IMG/VR virus record: IMGVR_UViG_2531839433_000003 | DNA: 21,842 nucleotides | Origin: a virus | Lineage: Duplodnaviria > Heunggongvirae > Uroviricota > Caudoviricetes | Direction: 5' to 3' (one strand) | Shown here: positions 1,142 to 18,572 of the stretch, piece after piece | Layout: every line of letters begins with the position of its first letter | Numbering within the stretch: the stretch's first letter is position 1 | Translations under genes and position numbers: made by a program | The notes under the pieces: model-generated | The model's database searches: none | Told to the model about the DNA's origin: nothing | The model's input: only the letters and a program-made list of their open reading frames with translations

Positions 1142-1777
1142 CTATAAATCTGCTCTTAAATTATTTTCAGGGTCATTAGCGATATTTCTTTGTGAATTAT
1201 TAACTAAATCAGAAAATGTATTATCTCGGTCGTTAGATTTAGTTAATCCAATATTCGTATTTGTCGCTTCTAATTCAAGTATTGATGACTCCATCTTCTG
1301 AATAATGGCTACACTATCTATAAAATAGTCGAAAATATATTGAAATGATACTGTGGGGCTTTTCCCATGAGCGAAATCATTTCTGGCTCTATTTAAAGAT
1401 TTCAACGAATCACGTAATTTATTTGAATGCGGATCGTTCTTGATTTTGTCCTTAAAGTTGTTACACCAGTTATTATCAAATGAACCAAGTGCCTTACAAA
1501 TATTATCGTAATTAGGGTTCATTGAACTATTTCTGAATTTTTCATCAATGAATCTTTGTATTTGTTCACTATGTTGATCATATTTATGATCGCTAATGAT
1601 TGTTTTGAAAGAATATTCAATGGTTCCGCAGGTTCTAATAATTGAATATCGTGTTAAATATTTAACAATAGTTGTAGTGGGGCCAGAAGATTCTATCATC
1701 TTCTCTATACTCTCAAGTTCCTTTAAACAATCTATAATGCTATTTTTAGCATTATTATTAACGATATTGAATGCCAT
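1142..1777 (-). CDS. HEPN-motif protein (R-x4-6-H), predicted RNase effector; resembles the MAE_28990/MAE_18760-type HEPN family
   Basis: Motif LNRARNDFAHGKS (RNxxxHG) in the C-terminal third of an AT-rich ORF. GGAG lies 7 nt upstream of the ATG at 1777; the ORF track's longer start at 1810 has no ribosome-binding site. Overlaps the DUF262 gene by 20 nt. Confidence 0.55.
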   Translation of the reverse strand: MAFNIVNNNAKNSIIDCLKELESIEKMIESSGPTTTIVKYLTRYSIIRTCGTIEYSFKTIISDHKYDQHSEQIQRFIDEKFRNSSMNPNYDNICKALGSFDNNWCNNFKDKIKNDPHSNKLRDSLKSLNRARNDFAHGKSPTVSFQYIFDYFIDSVAIIQKMESSILELEATNTNIGLTKSNDRDNTFSDLVNNSQRNIANDPENNLRADL

Positions 1778-2912
1778 AAAGAAACTCCAGTGCCATTGAA
1801 ATTCTTCCATGTATATTTTCTATCTGCATTGTACCAGATGTGATATGTGACCGAAATGTCTGATTTTGTAGTAACTCATTTCTTTTATGCTCTAGATCGT
1901 TAGTGTTTATATCTTCACCTGAATTTAATGCAATGGATGTTGCGACATATAATGCATCAAAAATGGTTGGATAAAAACGACGACGTATACGTGATGGATC
2001 TGATTGGATTATATTAAAGAATGCATCTGGTCCTATATTATCATGAATAAAATTAATGGTGTTTTCAAAATCGGTTTTAATGGTGTCGATCATGTCAGAG
2101 GTGTTATTTGCTTTATCACCCATATATTCATTAAGGAGTTTTTTTAGCGAAATATTTGCTGGTTCATGACTCTTTATTTTCTGCGTGTTAAGAGCCAAGC
2201 CTCTTAGAATGAATTCCATATCTCTCATTCGTGCATCTGGTTTATTAGAACCGAATAAAGTACGCCATTTGATATTATTGTTTAGTTCTATCAATAGAGT
2301 ATTTAATTTCCCTTGATATACGCAATTACGTATTTCTTGAGCCATTAGTGAACGTCCACCAGTATTTATACGCTCAAAAATTTGATATAGGCTAGTATCA
2401 TCGTTCGACGGAACGGTTTGCTCAAAGATTATAGCGTGTATAGTTGTTGAGCGAATTTTCTTTTTTTCTGAAACTGTAAGTTCATTAAAGGCCTTACCAC
2501 GCCATTTTGCATTAATTTTTCTACTATCGGAAAGTTTAAAGACTCTACTATCTTTTGACCATATACCTGTCACATAATCATAGACAGTCATGATTCTCTG
2601 AAAACCATCTATAATGAGTTTGTTTTCGTCAGACGTATTTGCTAAAAAAATACTCGGAACAGGAAGACCTAGCAATAATGAGTCTATAAATCTACTGGCT
2701 TCGACTTTATCCCAAACATAATTTCTTTGAAGTTCTGGTTTCTGAAGTTCGCCCTCATCATACATTGTAATAAGTTCTCTAAAAGATAAATCGGCCCCCC
2801 ATGAGTTTATATTGTATAAATCATCATTTGAGTAAGAATCGTTCTGTTCTTCTTCGATTATCTCTATTGTGTCCTCAAGAGAATTATTATTGATATAATT
2901 GCTGTCAGTCAT
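1758..2912 (-). CDS. DUF262 protein (ParB-like / GmrS N-terminal NTP-binding domain), no fused HNH/DUF1524 domain
   Basis: Motifs PELQRNYVW and IIDGFQR (the DGQQR-type motif) near the N-terminus. Start chosen at MTDSNY (ATG 2910..2912), which has GAGG 5 nt upstream and sits 1 nt after the CI-like stop codon. Confidence 0.72.
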   Translation of the reverse strand: MTDSNYINNNSLEDTIEIIEEEQNDSYSNDDLYNINSWGADLSFRELITMYDEGELQKPELQRNYVWDKVEASRFIDSLLLGLPVPSIFLANTSDENKLIIDGFQRIMTVYDYVTGIWSKDSRVFKLSDSRKINAKWRGKAFNELTVSEKKKIRSTTIHAIIFEQTVPSNDDTSLYQIFERINTGGRSLMAQEIRNCVYQGKLNTLLIELNNNIKWRTLFGSNKPDARMRDMEFILRGLALNTQKIKSHEPANISLKKLLNEYMGDKANNTSDMIDTIKTDFENTINFIHDNIGPDAFFNIIQSDPSRIRRRFYPTIFDALYVATSIALNSGEDINTNDLEHKRNELLQNQTFRSHITSGTMQIENIHGRISMALEFLYGIQYR

Positions 2913-2913
2913 T

Positions 2914-3864
2914 TTAACCTCTAACATTATTAATGGATAATACGATCTTTGCAATAAATTCGATTTCGTTTATTGAACATTCAAAAACTATGTTTTTATT
3001 TTTTACTTGAATTTTTTCATTAGGTAATTTAGTGATTGTTCGAATACTGATATCTCCATCAATACCAACGATCCACTCGCCATCTATAATATTATTGAAT
3101 CTTTTTTCACAAATGTAAAAGTTATTTACATTTTCAATCAAACAAGGAAATATCGTATTTTCAGGTAACAGATTTTTATCAAATATCGAGTTCCCGCTCT
3201 CAATTAATTTTGCATTATTTAGAGTAAACTTTGGTATATTTATACAGTTTAAACTGCTATTTTTTTCTATTTTATCTCCTTTCCCAAAGGCTAACCACGT
3301 GATGGATACTCCTGTTTCGATAGCACACTGAATTACCCAATCAGCAGGAAAAGTATCACGCATATATCGTGTGGCTAACGTGCTTTTTGAAATACCAAGG
3401 TGATCAGCTAAGGCTTGACGTGTCTTGTAACCGTAAGCTTCAACAATTCGTTCTATTACTGCTTTTCCTCCATGAGTGAAATTCATGTGGATTTCATTAT
3501 CGAACAGAGTGGGGGAAGAGTGAACTTTGTCGCAAAGTCCATCTTCGGTTTGTTTTTCAGCATGTTGTTCTAGTGAAGAAGATGACATTCTTTCTTTAAC
3601 ACCTGAACCAAATGCTAGCCATTCAATTGATGCGCCTGTCTCCATCGAGCAGATAACAACCCAATCTGCTGGAAATGTATCGCGGGCATATCTGTTAGCC
3701 ATCGTGCTTTGGGAAATACCTAGGTGATTACAGAATGCCTGGCGTGACTTGAAGCCATAAGCCATGAGGATCCGCTCAATTACTTTCTGACCACCGCGAT
3801 TCTGTATGACAGCGGCTTTCATATCGTCATTCATATGGCGAAATGTGAATTTTTGAGTTGACAT
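2914..3864 (-). CDS. CI-like repressor with two tandem Phage_CI_repr-type HTH domains and an AT-rich C-terminal domain
   Basis: Two internally repeated segments (around residues 14-88 and 120-195) share the pattern ERI..AYG.K.RQA...HLGIS.ST.A.RY.RDTFPADWV..C..ETG.S..WLAFG.G, which resembles the phage 186 CI N-terminal domain. Divergent from the Apl-like gene, in the cI position. Confidence 0.65.
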   Translation of the reverse strand: MSTQKFTFRHMNDDMKAAVIQNRGGQKVIERILMAYGFKSRQAFCNHLGISQSTMANRYARDTFPADWVVICSMETGASIEWLAFGSGVKERMSSSSLEQHAEKQTEDGLCDKVHSSPTLFDNEIHMNFTHGGKAVIERIVEAYGYKTRQALADHLGISKSTLATRYMRDTFPADWVIQCAIETGVSITWLAFGKGDKIEKNSSLNCINIPKFTLNNAKLIESGNSIFDKNLLPENTIFPCLIENVNNFYICEKRFNNIIDGEWIVGIDGDISIRTITKLPNEKIQVKNKNIVFECSINEIEFIAKIVLSINNVRG

Positions 3865-3886
3865 ATTCTTTATGCGAACCTATTCT
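3858..3886 (+). promoter_or_regulatory. Candidate rightward early promoter: TTGACA, 17-nt spacer, TATTCT
   Basis: Perfect -35 hexamer at 3858..3863 and a -10-like TATTCT at 3881..3886 upstream of the Apl-like gene; overlaps the CI-like start codon. No transcript data. Confidence 0.35.
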
Positions 3887-3888
3887 CC

Positions 3889-3918
3889 GTTTTGTGATGT
3901 TGTTATCACGATTAAAAC
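3889..3918. promoter_or_regulatory. Nested palindrome GTTTT-GTGAT-N6-ATCAC-gatt-AAAAC; candidate repressor/Apl operator
   Basis: Inverted repeats read directly in the cI/apl divergent intergenic region. Confidence 0.3.
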
Positions 3919-3952
3919 CAGCTCACCACAAGCTAAAAGGAGATGTTGCATC

Positions 3953-4174
3953 ATGACCCCTAACATTTCAATAACTCTGAATACACCACACGTCACAATC
4001 GAGCGTTATAGCGAACTTACTGGTCTTTCAATCGACACAATCAACGATATGCTGGCAGATGGTCGCATCCCTCGGCATCGTCTTCGTAAAGACAAAAAAA
4101 GAGAAAAGGTAATGATCAACCTTGCTGCTCTTACCGTTGATGCACTTACTGATTGCAATGTTGTATTCAACTAG
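3953..4174 (+). CDS. apl: Apl/Cox-like small HTH excisionase/regulator
   Basis: 73 aa, first rightward gene opposite the CI-like gene, GGAG upstream, HTH-like segment [24 protein letters not shown]. Position matches 186 apl / P2 cox. Confidence 0.55.
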
Positions 4175-4206
4175 TTCCATTTTGGGATATATCAGGGGTG
4201 TCGACT

Positions 4207-4716
4207 ATGTTTGATTACCAAGTTTCCAAACATCCACATTTTGATGAAGCCTGTCGTGCATTCGCGTTGCGCCACAACCTGGTGCAACTGGCAGAACGTG
4301 CAGGCATGAATGTGCAGATTCTGCGGAACAAGCTGAACCCAGCTCAACCTCATTTATTAACCGCACCAGACATCTGGCTGCTTACCGATCTGACTGAGGA
4401 TTCAACGCTGGTAGATGGTTTTCTGGCACAGATTCATTGTCTGCCATGTGTACCAATTAATGAGGTGGCAAAAGAGAAACTGCCACATTACGTCATGAGT
4501 GCAACCGCAGAGATCGGGCGTGTTGCGGCAGGTGCGGTATCTGGCGATGTAAAAACCAGTGCAGGTCGTCGTGATGCTATCAGCAGCATTAACTCTGTAA
4601 CACGACTGATGGCGCTGGCTGCTGTTTCATTGCAGGCCCGTTTACAGGCTAATCCTGCGATGGCGAGCGCAGTTGATACCGTGACTGGCCTCGGTGCTTC
4701 ATTCGGTTTGCTGTGA
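4207..4716 (+). CDS. cII: CII-like transcriptional activator (phage 186 CII type)
   Basis: 169 aa, the same length as 186 CII. N-terminus [20 protein letters not shown] and internal [28 protein letters not shown] match my recollection of 186 CII. Confidence 0.65.
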
Positions 4717-4723
4717 GGTGCTT

Positions 4724-4924
4724 ATGCTTACGAAAGAACCATCATTTGCATCGCTGCTGGTAAAGCAAAGCCCGGCAATGCACTACGGTCACGGCTGGAT
4801 CATGGGTGAGGATGGTAAACGCTGGCATCCATGCCGTTCACAAGATGAATTGCTGGCAGAACTATCTACGAAAAAACGGGGGAACAAATGGCTATTAATG
4901 GCGCTGCAGCAACTGTTCCATTAA
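4724..4924 (+). CDS. Hypothetical early-operon protein, 66 aa
   Basis: ORF with GAGGTG 5 nt upstream of the ATG, in the position of 186 fil. Confidence 0.4.
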   Translation: MLTKEPSFASLLVKQSPAMHYGHGWIMGEDGKRWHPCRSQDELLAELSTKKRGNKWLLMALQQLFH

Positions 4925-9607: not shown

Positions 9608-9766
9608 GAAAAGTTGCTGGCGTCTGAACTTGGTTCTGGCGTCAGCAAGGTTGAACAACGAGTACAGTGAGGCGTTAGGTGTGGCGTTTATTTGATGAGT
9701 GAACGCCCGTTCTGCGACAGGTTCGGAGATTAAGGTTGAAACTACGGGCAAAATACCATCTTTTTC

Positions 9767-10192
9767 CTACTTAATTGAGTCCAGTAACAAGTTACAGTTA
9801 CTCTCATTGTAGAGAGAACGAGCAATTAGTGTTACCTGCTTTCCATTTATTCCCGGCTTATCCCATAACACAGCTTCTTGCGACGCCACAAATTCAGCAT
9901 AATCAATTATGCGTTGTTCGTGATCTGGTTCCTCATAGCCAAAGTATGAGAGCGCATCGTTGTAAGCGTGGTAAGCTGCTTTCTGTAATATCTTGATATC
10001 GGCTGTAGGTACTTGCCCCGTGTAGCTAGGATCTAATTGTGTGCTACTGCCATAGAATGCACATGAAAGGTAAGATATTGATTTCTGTTGAGCTTTAGTT
10101 CCTTTCTCATAGTTTTTAGCTGTTACCGCCTGAACTGGGACGCTAACAAAGCTTGCAACCAGAATTAAAATTAATACGTAAAAGCTTTTCAT
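9767..10192 (-). CDS. Secreted/periplasmic protein of unknown function, 141 aa, Sec-type signal peptide
   Basis: N-terminus MKSFYVLILILVASFVSVPVQA followed by a polar mature region; GAGG 5 nt upstream. AT-rich, leftward, at the position and orientation P2 uses for old. Confidence 0.6.
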   Translation of the reverse strand: MKSFYVLILILVASFVSVPVQAVTAKNYEKGTKAQQKSISYLSCAFYGSSTQLDPSYTGQVPTADIKILQKAAYHAYNDALSYFGYEEPDHEQRIIDYAEFVASQEAVLWDKPGINGKQVTLIARSLYNESNCNLLLDSIK

Positions 10193-10465
10193 TTTGACCT
10201 CAGCCGAAACGTTAGAGAGACTATCGAAATTTGTAAAACCCGTGGCGATTCAGTTTGAGATCCTCCCCCTTACATGATTTTTAATCAAATATATGCTTTT
10301 GTAAGCATACCTGTTAACCGAATTATTTATTTTTAGAGATTTTCCGACATACTGATTATACCCGCTGAGGAGTTCACCTTGCGTAAAGTCCGATTCGCTT
10401 TACTCGTCTGTGCATGTCTATGCTGCATGAGATTGCATGATCGTTTGAGGATCGTTTTTGCTAAG

Positions 10466-11459: not shown

Positions 11460-11639
11460 ATGACTATGACGCATAGTGACAAGAAAGCTCAGAAGCATTA
11501 CTCAGTATCTGATGTTTTCAGCCGTATGGGCGTCGCGATGGAAGAACTACTTCAAGCGGCCCCACATATGATGCAGGACTGCAAATTTGAAGGAAATGAG
11601 CTGCATGGTAAGCTCAAAGAAAAGCAGAAAGCTGCTTAA
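11460..11639 (+). CDS. Small hypothetical protein, 59 aa
   Basis: GAGG 5 nt upstream of the ATG; followed within 25 nt by a strong intrinsic terminator. Below the ORF-track length cut-off; translated by hand. Confidence 0.5.
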   Translation: MTMTHSDKKAQKHYSVSDVFSRMGVAMEELLQAAPHMMQDCKFEGNELHGKLKEKQKAA

Positions 11640-11661: not shown

Positions 11662-11688
11662 GAAGCCCGGTAATACCGGGCTTTTTTA
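11662..11688 (+). terminator. Rho-independent terminator
   Basis: Hairpin agcccgg(taata)ccgggct followed by TTTTTT; sits between the convergent small gene and the portal 3' fragment. Confidence 0.7.
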
Positions 11689-11694
11689 TGCTTG

Positions 11695-11815
11695 CTAGTC
11701 AGTATTAAGCTCATATGGATTGAATCGGACTACCTCTTCACCAAGCCATTCATTTAGCTCCAGCAATCGCTTTTGTAACGGTACTATTTCGTTTCTTGTG
11801 AAGACGCGACTGGCC
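11695..11815 (-). pseudogene. Portal gene (P2 gpQ type) 3' fragment, separated from the rest by the IS66-family insertion
   Basis: Minus-strand frame read by hand through the IS junction encodes ...RLLELNEWLGEEVVRFNPYELNTD then a stop at 11695..11697. Confidence 0.5.
11808..11815. repeat. Target-site duplication gactggcc, left copy
   Basis: Identical 8-mer directly abuts both IS ends (11808..11815 and 14515..14522). Confidence 0.8.
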
Positions 11816-11845
11816 GTAAGCGGCTCGTCAGAACCGTATTGATAT

Positions 11846-13417
11846 TTACTGAGAGCTCAGATCAACTTTCCAGGGCAACAGATCGCGTACCCGGTTTGCC
11901 GGCCAGTCCTGGATATGTTCAATGACGTAGCGCAGCCACTTTTCTGGCTCCACATTGTTCAGACGGCATGTGCCGATCAGCGAGTACAACACCGCCGCAT
12001 GTTCACCACCGCTGTCGGAACCCGCGAACATCCACTTTTTCCGGCCTACGGCCACTCCCCGTAAGGCGTTCTCTGCGATGTTGTTGTCGATTTCCACCCA
12101 GCCATTACTGCAGTACACGTTCAGTGCATCCCACTGTTTCAGCAGGTATGCGAACGCTTTTGCCGTATCTGAGTGACGCGACAGTGTTTTCATCTGTTGC
12201 TGTATCCAGTCATACAGTGACTGCATCAGTGGCGCGGCTCTGGTTTTTCTTGCCGCCAGACGCTGTTCTGCTGAACAGCCCCGGACCTCTGCCTCGATGG
12301 CATACAGTTCACCGATACGCTGCAGGGCTTCCGTGGTGATGTCGGTGGGCGCTCTTGCATGCACATCGTGGATTTTTCTCCGGGCATGAGCCATACACGC
12401 GGCTTCCGTTATTCTGCCGGATTCGTATAACGCCCGGTAACCACCGTAAGCATCGGCCTGAAGCACACCGCTGTAACCGGCCAGGTGATTTTGTGGATGG
12501 ATACCTTTCCGGTCCGGACTGTACGCGAACCAGACCGCCGGGGGCATCTGTGAACCGGCGTTACGGTCATCACGGACGTAGACCCACAGCCGGGCTGTCC
12601 GGGTTTTACCGCTGCCCGGCTCCTGGACCGGGACGGGGATATCATCAGCATGGACTTTACCGGGCATCAGCACATACTGGCGCAGGACGTCATACAGCGG
12701 CTCCAGTAGTTCAGCAACGGCACCTGTCCAGCGCCCCAGTGTGGCACGGCTCAGCTCCACACCCTGACGGCGGTATATCTCTGACTGGCGGTATAACGGC
12801 AGATGGTCTGCATATTTTCCGGTGACGACATGGGCCAGGAGCCCCGCTCCGGCATAACTGCGTGCAATGGGTTTTGAAGGTACTGGTGCCTGCACGATAT
12901 GGTCGCACCGACAACAGGCCAGTTTCGGACGTTGTGTTTCGATAACCTTAAAGGCGCTGCTGATAAGCTCCAGTTGCTCTGACACATCACATCCCAGAGA
13001 ACTGAGTTCACCACCACAGGCAGGACAGCATTCCTCTTCCGGCCGGATAACCCGGGTTTCACGGGGAAGTGAGGCCGGTAACGGTTTACGGGCTGAAGAC
13101 TGGCGCAGGGCGGATGGCAGTACCGGGTCATATTGCTCACCCAGCGTTTCCGCCATTTCTTCCTGAAGTGCGCTGATTCGCTCCTGTGCTTCCTGTATCT
13201 GCCGTTCGGTTTTTGCACGAAGTTTTTCTGAGCTTTTACCGAACTGCATACGTTGCAGTTTCGCAACCAGCGCCTTCAGCCGGTTGATTTCGGAAGCATA
13301 AGCCGCCACCCGCTGTGAGAGCAGGCGGTTGTATTCAGCCATCTGGCGTATGGTGTCCTGTTGCGTCTGCAACAGTGCCCGCAGGCGGGCGTTCTCATGA
13401 GCAAGTGAGGTGTCCAT
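11846..13417 (-). CDS. tnpC: IS66-family transposase (TnpC)
   Basis: 523 aa with an N-terminal coiled-coil/leucine-zipper region and a Cys-rich segment, as in IS66-family TnpC. Confidence 0.85.
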
Positions 13418-13436
13418 ATCCTCACTTTACAACGGG

Positions 13437-13784
13437 TTATATGCGGATTCCAGCGCGTTCCGTTCGTTTCGGGTGCTTCCAGTTGATACCTTCAAGAAGC
13501 ATGGATAACTGAGCCGGAGTAAGGTGCACCTTGCCGTCACGGGTGACTGGCCAGACGAAGCGGCCCCGCTCCAGGCGTTTGGTGAAGAGGCACAGTCCGT
13601 CACTGTCAGCCCACAACACTTTTATCTGGTCACCCCGGCGTCCGCGGAAGATGAACAGGTGTCCGGAGAACGGGTCATCCTTCAGGACGTTCTGAACTTT
13701 TGATGCCAGGCCGTTAAAGCCATTTCGCATATCGGTGATACCTGCAACCAGCCAGATACGCGAACCTGCAGGGAGAGATATCAT
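13437..13784 (-). CDS. tnpB: IS66-family accessory protein TnpB (Orf2)
   Basis: 115 aa, MISLPAGSRIWLVAGITDMR..., as in IS66 Orf2; ATGA overlap with the upstream ORF. Confidence 0.8.
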   Translation of the reverse strand: MISLPAGSRIWLVAGITDMRNGFNGLASKVQNVLKDDPFSGHLFIFRGRRGDQIKVLWADSDGLCLFTKRLERGRFVWPVTRDGKVHLTPAQLSMLLEGINWKHPKRTERAGIRI

Positions 13785-14461
13785 CAGTGGCTGCTCCCTT
13801 TTATTTCGCGGATAAGTGTCTGTAATAACGCCGGCGTCAGTTTACCTTTAAGCCTGAGAGTTCCGGCCGGCAGAACCAGCTCACAACACAGACTGTCGGA
13901 CGGTGTATTTATCTGCTCTGGTTCCTGTGCGGGGGCCGGGATTTTATTATCCGGCTCCGGCGTTAACGTCACGGGAAGCAGTGCCGGCATATTTTTTCCG
14001 GAAGGCAGCAGGCCACCTTTCCGGTATTGATGGCGCCAGTTGAAGAGCAGGTTATCGTTGATTCCGTTTTCCCGGGCGATCTGCGCCACACAGGCTCCGG
14101 GCTGCAGTGACTGCTCCACTAAGGCGATTTTAAACTCATAAGGGAAGTTGGGCCGCCGGGGACGTTTTTTTACCACGGGGGCTTCGGATATAACGGTGCT
14201 TTCAGGACGTACGACTGGTACCGTGGAAAATTGTCCGTAAAGGCAGGCATCAAGTTCCTGCTCCGACATGCCTGCGGGCAAAGGCCACGAAAGGCCAGCT
14301 CTCCGAAAGCGCACGAACATACTACAAACTGTTGATTTTGGTACACCCAGGCGACGCCCGGCCACAACCCGGGGTAAATGTTCTTCAAAGTGAAGACGTA
14401 AAGCTTCAGTGATCCAGGTCCGGTGTTTCATACGATAGTGTCCATTAAAAATGATGGACAT
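13784..14461 (-). CDS. tnpA: IS66-family accessory protein TnpA (Orf1); start uncertain
   Basis: First ORF inside the IS, leftward, coupled to tnpB. The true start may be the internal Met (MKHRTW...). Confidence 0.6.
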   Translation of the reverse strand: MSIIFNGHYRMKHRTWITEALRLHFEEHLPRVVAGRRLGVPKSTVCSMFVRFRRAGLSWPLPAGMSEQELDACLYGQFSTVPVVRPESTVISEAPVVKKRPRRPNFPYEFKIALVEQSLQPGACVAQIARENGINDNLLFNWRHQYRKGGLLPSGKNMPALLPVTLTPEPDNKIPAPAQEPEQINTPSDSLCCELVLPAGTLRLKGKLTPALLQTLIREIKGSSH

Positions 14462-14514
14462 TATTTTTGTAGAGCCGGAGGAAACAGACCAGACGGTTTA
14501 AATGAGCCGGTTAC

Positions 14515-14522
14515 GACTGGCC
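14515..14522. repeat. Target-site duplication gactggcc, right copy
   Basis: Identical to 11808..11815. Confidence 0.8.
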
Positions 14523-15439
14523 TTTTCCACATCCCCAAAACCGCCGGTATTGTTGGGAATGATACCCATCATTTGCGGCGGCACACGATGCGCCGCCATC
14601 ATGTCGTCCCGGCTCACGTTCTTGATATTCAGGAACTCATCCTTCGCCGCCACTTCTGACAACGGGATAATCTGAAGCCCATCCTTTTTGCCGTTAGGCG
14701 AGTACATAAACAGGTTACGGAAGTTACCAGGACCTTTGGCACTTTTCATTGCGTTGCGGAGGTTGTTCACATCCTCCTGGTTCTGCGCGGCGTCGGTCAT
14801 GTACATGATGAAGCCCGCATGGCTGCCGTTGATGTAATACTTCCGGCGGAACAGCGTGGCGGACTCGTTGAGCAGGGCTGACGGAATGGCAGAAAGATAA
14901 CCGGGCAGGCCGTAGATCTCCTGGTTGATGTCCGGCTCCATCAGATGAAAAATGCTGCCTTTCGTGAACTGATACGGCTGGGTTGTCATACCGTATTGCA
15001 CAAACCAGTAGGTATCCAGGTCTAACCCGCGTCGGGTGTATTTTGCCAGAGCAGGCTCAAGGGCTATAACTTCACCGAAGCGGTTCGTGCGTTTCTCCAG
15101 GTAGGCGTTACCAAAAACCAGATAGTCCTGTACAAAACGCGAAAAAGCCTGCTGGCTGAGCAGCGGGTGAGGGATGTAGGTGCTGGTCAGAATGTTGCAC
15201 TTTACTGCAATCGGGGAACTATGATGAACGGCAGCGCGGAAGGTGCGCGCCAGTCCGTCAAAGCTGACGGGCGGCTCATACCAGCGGTCCATCTGTACGC
15301 ATTCCACATAATCCAGCAGCTCTCGGCGGTCCAGAACAGGAACGGGATCGCCGAAGCTGAATGCTTCGGCTGTAGTTTGACTTTTAAGCTGGATCTGTTT
15401 CGTCGCCGCAGCGCGGTTCTTCTTACTCTTTCCCATCAA
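14515..15439 (-). pseudogene. Portal gene (P2 gpQ type) 5' portion, interrupted near its 3' end by the IS
   Basis: ORF 14498..15439 translates to a P2 Q-like portal; its last few codons read into IS sequence. Start overlaps the terminase stop (ATGA). Confidence 0.75.
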
Positions 15440-17202
15440 AAAATCTCCACAATATTGCTGGTATTGGCGGATTCGCCCTGCAGCGGTTCGTTAAACAGTG
15501 CGTGCATCGTTGCCCAGGCCAGATCGGCGTGGCTGGCTTCTTCGCTGCGGCTGGCTTCATAGGTCGGGCGGTTGCCACTGGCGGTGGTGGCGCGACGGAT
15601 TGCCATAAAGGACTGCGCTATGTCGGTGTGTCCGGCGTCAAACTCCAGACGGCGGTGGCTGATAATGTCGTAGGCCTTGAGTACCAGGGCGTTTTTAACG
15701 TTGGGGTTGTAGACAAACTCCCGGACGGCAGGAAAAAACGCTTTCACGTTCTCGTAAACCCCGTGACCAACGCCGGTTGAGTCGATACCGATATAGGTCA
15801 CGTTGTACTGTTCGGTCAGTTTTTTGATGGCGTCCGCCTGGGCGCGGAAGTCCATTCCGCGCCACTGGTGACGCTCAAGAATGCGGAACTTACCGCCCGG
15901 CACGGCTGGCGGCGCCACCACCACGCATCCGGCGCTGTCGCCGTTCTGCGTACCTTTCGCCGGATCATATCCGATCCACACTTCGCGCCAGCCAAACGGG
16001 CGCAGGGCCAGTGCATGAAAGTCGGTCCAGACTTCCCAACTGTCCACCATGCACGCCTGCAGCTCGCTGAGTGGGAACACAGACGCGAGATCGTCCACGA
16101 ACTCACACATCAGCAGGTTCTGGTATTCGTCCGGGCTGTACTCCATGCGCAACTGATCGAGGTCGAACAGGTTACAGCCGCCGCGCACCGCATCTTCCAC
16201 AGTGACTATCTGGCGGTACTGCCCGTCTGCGCACAGCAGGCCGGGGGCCAGATTGCTGTGGGACAGGTCGATGTCCACCTTATCGGCTTTGTTGCGCCCT
16301 CGGTTGAATAGCGCACCGGACCAGAACGGATAAGCACTGTGTGTCAGGCTGGATGGCGTGGAAAAATAGGTTTGTCGCCATTTTTTGTGAATAGCCATAC
16401 CGGAAGCCACTTTGCGCAGCTCCTGGAATTTCGGTATCCAGAAATATTCATCCAGATACAGGTTGCCGTGGTAACTCTGGGCCGTGCGGGCATTGGTGCC
16501 GAGGAAGTACAGCGTGGCCCCGTTAGGAAGCACCATCGGATCGCCTTTCAGCTCCACCTCCACTTCTTTGGCGAAGTCGATGATGTACTGCTTAAAGACG
16601 TGGGCCTGAGCCTTGCTGGCGGAAAGGAAAATCTGGTTACGCCCGGTTAGCAGGGCGTCAATCAGGGCTTCACGGGCAAAATAGAAGGTCGCGCCGATCT
16701 GGCGTGACTTCAGCAGGTTGCGGATGCGGTTGGTTTTTCCGGCTTCCCACCAGTGGCGCTGGTAGTTGAACATGGAGGAATGGAAGATTTCTTCCAGCTT
16801 CTCAATCTGTTCATCGGTGAAAACGTTCTTTTCCGGCTGACGGCGCGGGCCTTTGTTGCGGTTGGCGACGTTAGGGTTTAAGTCGGCTTCGTTGCCGCCA
16901 TTGTTAAACTTGCCGATCCGCGCATGGCGCTCCGACTGGCGCGCCAGCAGGTCAATCTCTTTGAAATCTTTCCCTTCTTTGTGCTCCTTCATAATGAGCT
17001 GGCAGTAGCGTGCGGCGGTGGTGAGCTGCATCTGATCCAGCGGCCCATAGTCACCCCACTTGTCGCGTTTTTTCCAGCTGTGAACGGTTGCAACTTTCTC
17101 GCCCAGCATTTCAGCAATGCGGGCTACGCGGTATCCCTGAAAGTACAGCAGCATGGCCTGCCGACGGGGATCGAGATCTGCGGGTGTCAGTGTGGTGTTC
17201 AT
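15436..17202 (-). CDS. Terminase large (ATPase) subunit, P2 gpP type
   Basis: 588 aa, close to the 590 aa of P2 gpP; resembles it along its length; coupled to the portal gene. Confidence 0.85.
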   Translation of the reverse strand: MNTTLTPADLDPRRQAMLLYFQGYRVARIAEMLGEKVATVHSWKKRDKWGDYGPLDQMQLTTAARYCQLIMKEHKEGKDFKEIDLLARQSERHARIGKFNNGGNEADLNPNVANRNKGPRRQPEKNVFTDEQIEKLEEIFHSSMFNYQRHWWEAGKTNRIRNLLKSRQIGATFYFAREALIDALLTGRNQIFLSASKAQAHVFKQYIIDFAKEVEVELKGDPMVLPNGATLYFLGTNARTAQSYHGNLYLDEYFWIPKFQELRKVASGMAIHKKWRQTYFSTPSSLTHSAYPFWSGALFNRGRNKADKVDIDLSHSNLAPGLLCADGQYRQIVTVEDAVRGGCNLFDLDQLRMEYSPDEYQNLLMCEFVDDLASVFPLSELQACMVDSWEVWTDFHALALRPFGWREVWIGYDPAKGTQNGDSAGCVVVAPPAVPGGKFRILERHQWRGMDFRAQADAIKKLTEQYNVTYIGIDSTGVGHGVYENVKAFFPAVREFVYNPNVKNALVLKAYDIISHRRLEFDAGHTDIAQSFMAIRRATTASGNRPTYEASRSEEASHADLAWATMHALFNEPLQGESANTSNIVEIF

Positions 17203-17344: not shown

Positions 17345-18178
17345 ATGACAGTGAAAGCAAAGCGTTTTCGCATCGGGGTGGAAGGTGCCACCACCGACGG
17401 ACGCGAAATCCAGCGTGAATGGCTGGAACAGATGGCAGCCAGCTACAACCCGGCGGTGTATACCGCGCTGATTAACCTTGAGCACATCAAGTCTTATCTG
17501 CCGGACAGCACCTTTAACCGCTACGGCAAGGTGACGGCGCTGTTTGCTGAAGAAATCACGGAAGGTCCGCTGGCAGGCAAGATGGCGCTGTATGCCGACG
17601 TTGAGCCAACGGAGTCCCTGGTGGAACTGGTGAAAAAAGGCCAGAAATTATTCACCTCTATGGAAGTCAGCCCGAAGTTCGCTGATACGGGCAAAGCCTA
17701 TCTGGTCGGCCTGGCTGCCACTGATGACCCTGCCAGTCTGGGTACGGAAATGCTGACATTCAGCGCCAGTGCAGCCCATAACCCGCTGGCAAACCGCAAG
17801 CAGAATCCTGCCAATCTCTTTACCGCTGCAGAGGAAACGGTGATCGAACTGGAAGAAATCCAGGACGACAAACCGTCCCTGTTTGCCCGCGTCACGGCGC
17901 TGTTTACCAAAAAAGAGCAATCCGATGACGCCCGGTTCTCTGATGTGCATAAGGCCGTGGAGCTGGTCGCCACTGAGCAGCAGAACCTGAGCGCACGCAC
18001 CGAAAAATCCCTGTCTGAGCAGGAAGAACGCCTGTCTGAGCTGGAGACTGCCCTGCAGGCACAGCAAACCGCCTTTAACGAACTGGTGGACAAGCTGAGT
18101 CATGAAGACAGTCGCCAGGACTACCGCCAGCGTGCAACAGGCGGTAACGCCCCCGCTGACACTCTGACCAATTGCTGA
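17345..18178 (+). CDS. Capsid scaffolding protein, P2 gpO type
   Basis: 277 aa (P2 gpO is 284 aa), divergent from the terminase gene, with an acidic coiled-coil C-terminal half. Confidence 0.8.
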   Translation: MTVKAKRFRIGVEGATTDGREIQREWLEQMAASYNPAVYTALINLEHIKSYLPDSTFNRYGKVTALFAEEITEGPLAGKMALYADVEPTESLVELVKKGQKLFTSMEVSPKFADTGKAYLVGLAATDDPASLGTEMLTFSASAAHNPLANRKQNPANLFTAAEETVIELEEIQDDKPSLFARVTALFTKKEQSDDARFSDVHKAVELVATEQQNLSARTEKSLSEQEERLSELETALQAQQTAFNELVDKLSHEDSRQDYRQRATGGNAPADTLTNC

Positions 18179-18194
18179 TGGAGCACAAAACCCG

Positions 18195-18572
18195 ATGAAG
18201 AAGAATACCCGCTTTGCTTTTAACGCTTACCTGCAGCAGCTGGCGCGTCTGAACGGTGTGGCAGTTGAAGAACTGTCCAGCAAGTTCACCGTGGAGCCGT
18301 CTGTGCAGCAGACGCTGGAAGACCAGATCCAGCAGTCCGCCGCTTTCCTGACGCTGATTAACGTCACGCCAGTGACTGAGCAGTCCGGTCAGCTGCTGGG
18401 GCTGGGAGTTGGCAGCACCATTGCCGGAACCACTGACACCACCGCGAAAGAGCGTGAACCTGTCGATCCGACGCTGATGGTCGATGTGGAATATAAATGC
18501 GAGCAGACCAACTTTGACACGGTGCTGACCTACGCGAAGCTGGACCTGTGGACGGGGTGGGCTCTTAGATGA
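18195..18572 (+). pseudogene. Major capsid protein (P2 gpN type), N-terminal about 125 aa only
   Basis: Begins MKKNTRFAFNAYLQQLARLNG...KFTVEPSVQQTL like P2 gpN, but terminates after 125 aa where about 357 are expected. Confidence 0.7.

Follow-up and report, generated by a model that had tools for sequence, protein, structure and literature searches.

Gene content of the prophage remnant

The window, by which is meant the whole stretch of 21,842 nucleotides analysed here, holds a P2-like prophage remnant in which the homologue of the P2 portal gene Q is split by an insertion sequence of the IS66 family (Table 1). It corresponds to positions 365678-387519 of the chromosome of ETEC TW11681, from which it differs at a single base (position 1285) in 21842, and the prophage is integrated between rcdA and ybjL. 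Read from left to right, the remnant comprises the integrase gene, two cargo genes, the CI repressor gene, the early genes as far as that for the replication endonuclease, cargo where P2 has tin/old, the interrupted Q gene (Q::ISCro1), P and O; to the right of O follow a cut capsid gene and, after 13 nt of filler, the 37 codons that end gene D, with ogr and ybjL beyond them. In TW11681, RefSeq annotates the remnants of the capsid gene and of gene D, like the two portal fragments, as pseudogenes, and the insertion sequence is annotated there too.

Table 1. Coordinates of the insertion, the interrupted gene and neighbouring features (positions of the window)
Feature	Position	Strand	Support
Two overlapping cargo genes, between integrase and CI repressor genes	1142-2954	-	no gene there in P2 itself
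3′ portal fragment	11695..11815	-	last 39 residues and stop, left duplicate included; RefSeq 'phage portal protein, missing N-terminus' (TW11681)
8-bp target-site duplication, left copy, GACTGGCC	11808..11815	.	single copy in the unoccupied site of 23-AB02114
ISCro1 (IS66 family), 2699 bp	11816..14514	-	100% identical full-length annotated copies; 97.7% against the pCROD1 copy
Terminal inverted repeat, tnpC-proximal, GTAAGCGGCTCGTCAGAACCGT	11816..11837	.	17/22 against reverse complement of the other end; also in six other copies
tnpC, DDE transposase, 523 aa	11846..13417	-	PF03050 DDE_Tnp_IS66 1e-102; NF033517 476 bits
tnpB, IS66 accessory protein, 115 aa	13437..13784	-	PF05717 4.7e-40; NF033819 128.9 bits
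tnpA, IS66 accessory protein with HTH, 225 aa	13784..14461	-	NF038385 295.8 bits; HTH_Tnp_1 8.6e-15
Terminal inverted repeat, tnpA-proximal, reverse complement GTAACCGGCTCATTTAAACCGT	14493..14514	.	comparison of the ends; other copies
8-bp target-site duplication, right copy, GACTGGCC	14515..14522	.	sequence
5′ portal fragment	14515..15436	-	ATG 15436-15434; RefSeq 'phage portal protein, missing C-terminus'
gpP homologue (terminase ATPase), stop overlapped by portal ORF	15436-17202	-	synteny with P2
gpO homologue	17345-18178	+	synteny with P2
gpN (capsid) fragment	18195-18551	+	synteny with P2

The structural deletion described by the earlier note has its junction at 18551-18565, where the capsid gene, cut after about codon 119, is joined through the 13 nt to the remaining codons of gene D; the regulatory and accessory side, which that note considered intact, is indeed annotated as such from int to gpA. 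The deleted stretch would measure about 19 kb in P2 coordinates, judging from the P2 map. Because the prophage lacks everything between capsid codon ~119 and the last 37 codons of gene D, it cannot form particles, with or without the insertion. At the junction, ogr and the attR side have been kept, and no remnant of an insertion sequence is visible.

A closely related P2-like prophage adjoins ssrA in E. coli WS4437A-1. Its portal gene is intact and its ISCro1 site empty, but an independent deletion has joined a truncated terminase gene to that for the tail tube. ETEC prophages have therefore lost the morphogenesis side more than once.

The interrupted portal gene

In silico deletion of 11816..14522, that is, of the element together with one copy of the duplicated target, yields a continuous ORF of 344 codons. 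The restored product shares 61% identity with P2 gpQ (210/344 residues, one 2-residue gap, E 3e-162) and matches both TIGR01540 portal_PBSX (368.1 bits, cut-off 166) and PF04860 (62.9 bits, cut-off 39.1). Closer to it than gpQ are the portals of Escherichia phage Cartapus (95.9%) and of Klebsiella P2-like phages (about 93%); P2 was not among the top 40 phage matches, and the P2 record was compared directly. The earlier note had proposed this excision as the check on its reading, to be given up if the frame proved discontinuous or did not align with portal proteins. Excision leaves no break in the frame, and its product can be aligned with gpQ over all 344 residues, from one end to the other; that reading therefore stands.

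The insertion point lies after nucleotide 922 of the 1035 in the portal gene, after residue 308, so that 36 native residues (309-344) are cut off from the 5′ piece. Translation of this piece runs into the insertion sequence and stops at 14498-14500, giving a product of 312 aa in which the 308 native residues, ending ...EKASR, are followed by NRLI. The 3′ fragment reads ASRVFTRNEIVPLQKRLLELNEWLGEEVVRFNPYELNTD followed by the stop (11695-11814). The break had been placed about 38 codons from the end of the gene, in agreement with the 36 residues lost and the 39 encoded by the 3′ piece. Portal function has probably been lost, given the absence of the 36 C-terminal residues. A sequence search of solved structures with the restored portal returned no match, and the missing C-terminus could not be mapped in this way.

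Like P2 gpQ, the restored portal has 344 aa and is encoded downstream of and overlapping gpP, divergently from gpO; the homologue in the window differs in being broken after residue 308 and in belonging to a remnant prophage. The gene is the last of the leftward P-Q operon and adjoins the divergent O-N operon, as in P2. A G+C-rich hairpin, AAGCCCGG-TAATA-CCGGGCTT, followed by a T run, occupies 11663-11688 between a convergent ORF of 59 aa (11460-11639) and the portal stop codon (11695-11697), a position that corresponds to that of the terminator tQ in P2.

The search for empty sites also returned an E. coli genome in which a P2-type portal gene of another P2-like prophage is split by IS26. Although the insertion sequence, the site and the strain all differ from those of the ISCro1 case, hits of insertion sequences on the portal gene are therefore not unique.

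Structure and family assignment of the inserted element

The IS66 family is reportedly characterized by the gene order tnpA-tnpB-tnpC, a DDE-type TnpC, terminal repeats that start with GTAA and an 8-bp target duplication. In the window, the three genes follow one another in this order on one strand; the tnpA stop and the tnpB start overlap in TGATG (13786-13782), and tnpB is separated from tnpC by 19 nt. All three proteins score above the curated cut-offs of their profiles, which are 180 bits for NF033517, 50 for NF033819 and 150 for NF038385. In TnpC, the PF03050 match covers 283 of 284 profile positions, and the zf-IS66, LZ_Tnp_IS66 and DDE_Tnp_IS66_C modules are matched as well. TnpA is a long protein and is recognized by NF038385 ('IS66-like element accessory protein TnpA'), so that it matches this subtype and not just the short ISRel24-type TnpA. 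The assignment to IS66 and the description of three leftward ORFs, both made in the earlier note, are thus borne out by tnpA, tnpB and tnpC on the minus strand.

The element is bounded on both sides by the 8-mer GACTGGCC, and 2699 bp lie between the two copies; its length, its imperfect terminal inverted repeats and the identical flanking 8-mers had all been seen correctly beforehand. Comparison of the end GTAAGCGGCTC... with the reverse complement of the other, GTAACCGGCTC..., gives matches at 10/11, 17/22 and 19/26 positions, and the repeats start with GTAA. By sequence, the direct repeat extends over 9 bp (C followed by GACTGGCC), as the last base of the element, a C at 14514, coincides with base 11807. 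Six other copies of the element, inserted between unrelated flanks, have the identical terminus (...GGTTAC / ...CCGGTTAC). Because they share it, the duplication proper is 8 bp long and the extra C is the element's own. Two identical 8-mers would abut the ends of an element by chance with a probability of 4^-8, or 1.5e-5.

The element shares with the prototypes IS66 and IS679 the tnpA-tnpB-tnpC order, the overlap of tnpA stop and tnpB start, the DDE TnpC, the GTAA termini and the 8-bp duplication, but is a different member of the family. Every feature by which the family is recognized at the sequence level is present, including the duplication, with two copies around the element and one in the empty site described below, and at that level the element is an IS66-family insertion sequence.

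Identity with ISCro1 and copies in other genomes

ISCro1 has been described in E. coli plasmids as an element of 2699 bp that generates an 8-bp target duplication (PMC12115866), and it is the most expanded insertion sequence of Citrobacter rodentium, with 24 copies (PMC3072379). The copy on pCROD1 of C. rodentium ICC168, from which ISCro1 takes its name, is 97.7% identical in nucleotide sequence to the element of the window over the full 2699 bp. It has the same length and the same three genes, encoding proteins of equal lengths (225, 115 and 523 aa), with 221/225 identical residues in TnpA, 114/115 in TnpB and 514/523 (98.3%) in TnpC; the two differ by 59 substitutions and 2 gaps, and the tnpA-proximal terminus reads GTAACCGGCTC in the window whereas it reads GTAAGCGTCTC on pCROD1. 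In view of this near-identity and of the published length and duplication, and with RefSeq naming in agreement, the inserted element is identified as ISCro1.

The C. rodentium copy is located in the last 6 kb of pCROD1 (positions 2053-4751 of the stretch compared); ISCro1 was absent from the first 50 kb of pCROD1 and from the whole of pCROD2, and C. rodentium was not among the matches when species-representative genomes were scanned for an exact 38-mer. As the pCROD1 copy has no matching 8-bp flanks, the duplication is not displayed by every ISCro1 copy.

A megablast search with the element gave matches in 3018 of 5426 complete E. coli genomes, with at least 80% of the element covered in 1493. 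The best 15 records match the element at 100% identity from position 1 to 2699, lie on chromosomes as well as plasmids and carry the RefSeq names 'IS66-like element ISCro1 family transposase', tnpA and tnpB. Copies at unrelated sites, either 100% identical or 1-2 substitutions away, have their own 8-bp duplications (TTTGTAAG, ACACTTTG and GATACATC); examples are found on the chromosome of 504239 and on plasmids of S1-NGR-02-A, a member of the same lineage, and of strain 300709. Within one genome, several sites can be occupied by identical copies, an indirect sign that ISCro1 is probably able to transpose.

On plasmids p67_83 and pTW11681_81, ISCro1 lies between traD and a thermonuclease gene, and its two flanks do not match but are reciprocal between the plasmids, one having CGGTGGTC...GACCAACT and the other GACCAACT...CGGTGGTC. 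This arrangement points to recombination between two ISCro1 copies, probably an inversion. The draft assembly of Escherichia sp. MOD1-EC7003 was the source of 49 of 51 stretches with the exact 38-nt ISCro1 end, mostly at contig ends, which suggests a very large expansion of ISCro1 in that strain.

Mode of arrival in the portal gene

An 800-bp test sequence in which position 11815 was joined to 14523 is present in E. coli 23-AB02114 at full length and 100% identity. There, GACTGGCC occurs once, within an intact gene for a 344-aa 'phage portal protein'. Empty sites were found in five genomes altogether, namely 23-AB02114 and four others at 99.8-99.9%.

With the identity and precise boundaries of the element, the duplication, the unoccupied site, the portal ORF recovered by excision and the spread among genomes all directly observed, one copy of ISCro1 almost certainly entered the 3′ end of the portal gene by simple insertion, in a P2-like prophage of an ETEC lineage. 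In the mechanism envisaged, the DDE transposase TnpC, together with the accessory proteins TnpA and TnpB, would have carried ISCro1 into the 3′ end of the gene, and staggered cleavage of the target followed by repair would have duplicated the 8 bp GACTGGCC, as is usual in the IS66 family. Separation of the last 36 codons leaves the gene able to yield only the 312-aa product without its native C-terminus.

It could be argued that the flanking 8-mers match by chance, or that the element arrived through homologous recombination or a larger rearrangement: GACTGGCC occurs at two further plus-strand positions of the window (4683 and 13545), and recombination between copies has left some ISCro1 elements on plasmids with flanks that do not match. 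This is nevertheless extremely improbable, as a match of 8/8 at the exact ends has the low chance probability given above, the empty site contains the 8-mer once and is colinear and 100% identical in all other respects, and in silico excision restores the full-length portal ORF. The empty-site comparison effectively refutes this alternative.

Distribution and relative order of the two lesions

The complete junction between the insertion sequence and the portal gene is present in exactly 6 of the 5426 complete E. coli genomes, and these six genomes are also the ones that contain the complete capsid-to-D deletion junction: 504239, 67-1, TW11681, WS1933D, S1-NGR-02-A and LR883000. The recorded origins of the carrier isolates include India, Saudi Arabia and Switzerland. 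Insertion sequences are a classic source of misassembly, and ISCro1 ends coincide with many contig breaks in a draft genome; even so, the notion that a collapsed or misplaced repeat created the interruption deserves hardly any credence, since an identical junction recurs in six complete genomes with separate accessions, and both junctions and the duplication are internally consistent.

As all six strains share both lesions, the insertion and the deletion predate their common ancestor. The earlier note had called the insertion recent, and this holds in one sense: the two duplicates show no mismatch, and other copies in the same genomes are 100% identical to this one. It does not hold in the other, as the insertion is shared by six genomes and is older than their ancestor. 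The term 'recent' accordingly describes an undiverged duplication and element copy, not a recent event in epidemiological terms.

Each of the six carriers has both lesions, which fits either order of the events. An evenly balanced possibility is that ISCro1 inserted after the capsid-to-D deletion, into an already dead prophage, as a neutral passenger instead of the disabling step. The presence of both junctions in exactly the same six genomes is as compatible with this order as with the reverse. ISCro1 is, moreover, highly active in this lineage, occupying 7-9 places per chromosome in addition to plasmid copies, all 100% identical, and hits on neutral DNA are therefore to be expected. Against this, no genome with the deletion and without the insertion was found among the 5426 complete genomes, and equally none with the insertion and without the deletion. 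The functional relevance of the insertion would be moot if the deletion came first, and the insertion is probably neutral.

Accessory genes and a possible retained role

The two overlapping cargo genes encode a 398-aa GmrSD_N protein (PADLOC NsnA 1.4e-65, PD-T4-2_A 2.1e-55) and a 222-aa HEPN_RiboL-PSP protein (PD-T4-2_B 1.6e-08), and they look like an anti-phage pair of the PD-T4-2 type. The base that distinguishes the window from TW11681 falls within the HEPN gene.

The adjacent CI repressor (2914-3864, minus strand) has 316 aa, with two Phage_CI_repr HTH matches and one Phage_CI_C domain, whereas CI has 210 aa in the prophages of 23-AB02114 and WS4437A-1, which are related to this one; a tandem duplication of the DNA-binding domain is suggested by this composition. 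At the tin/old position, the stretch 9679-10411 (minus strand), which lies between the DinI-like gene and the portal-proximal ORFs, cannot be aligned with the 23-AB02114 prophage, which is similar elsewhere but encodes an HNH endonuclease there. The 141-aa ORF within it (9767-10192, minus strand) matched neither Pfam nor PADLOC entries.

A different role for the lesions can be imagined, in which selection maintains the remnant as an immobilised immunity and defence island in a globally spread ETEC lineage, with the ISCro1 insertion and the 19-kb deletion as the steps that locked it in place. This proposal, in which the island would consist of the integrase, the PD-T4-2-like GmrSD/HEPN pair, the CI repressor with duplicated HTH and the tin/old-position cargo, appears rather doubtful.

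Significance

The locus represents a textbook insertion of a well-known and very abundant insertion sequence into a defective prophage, already annotated in public records. It introduces no new mechanism or element type and has little import beyond correct annotation. Nonetheless, an insertion that can be examined together with its empty site makes a clean worked example, and the junction could serve as a marker of one clade of ETEC, to which the human-challenge strain TW11681 belongs. It also adds one more case in which insertion sequences drive the erosion of prophage morphogenesis genes.
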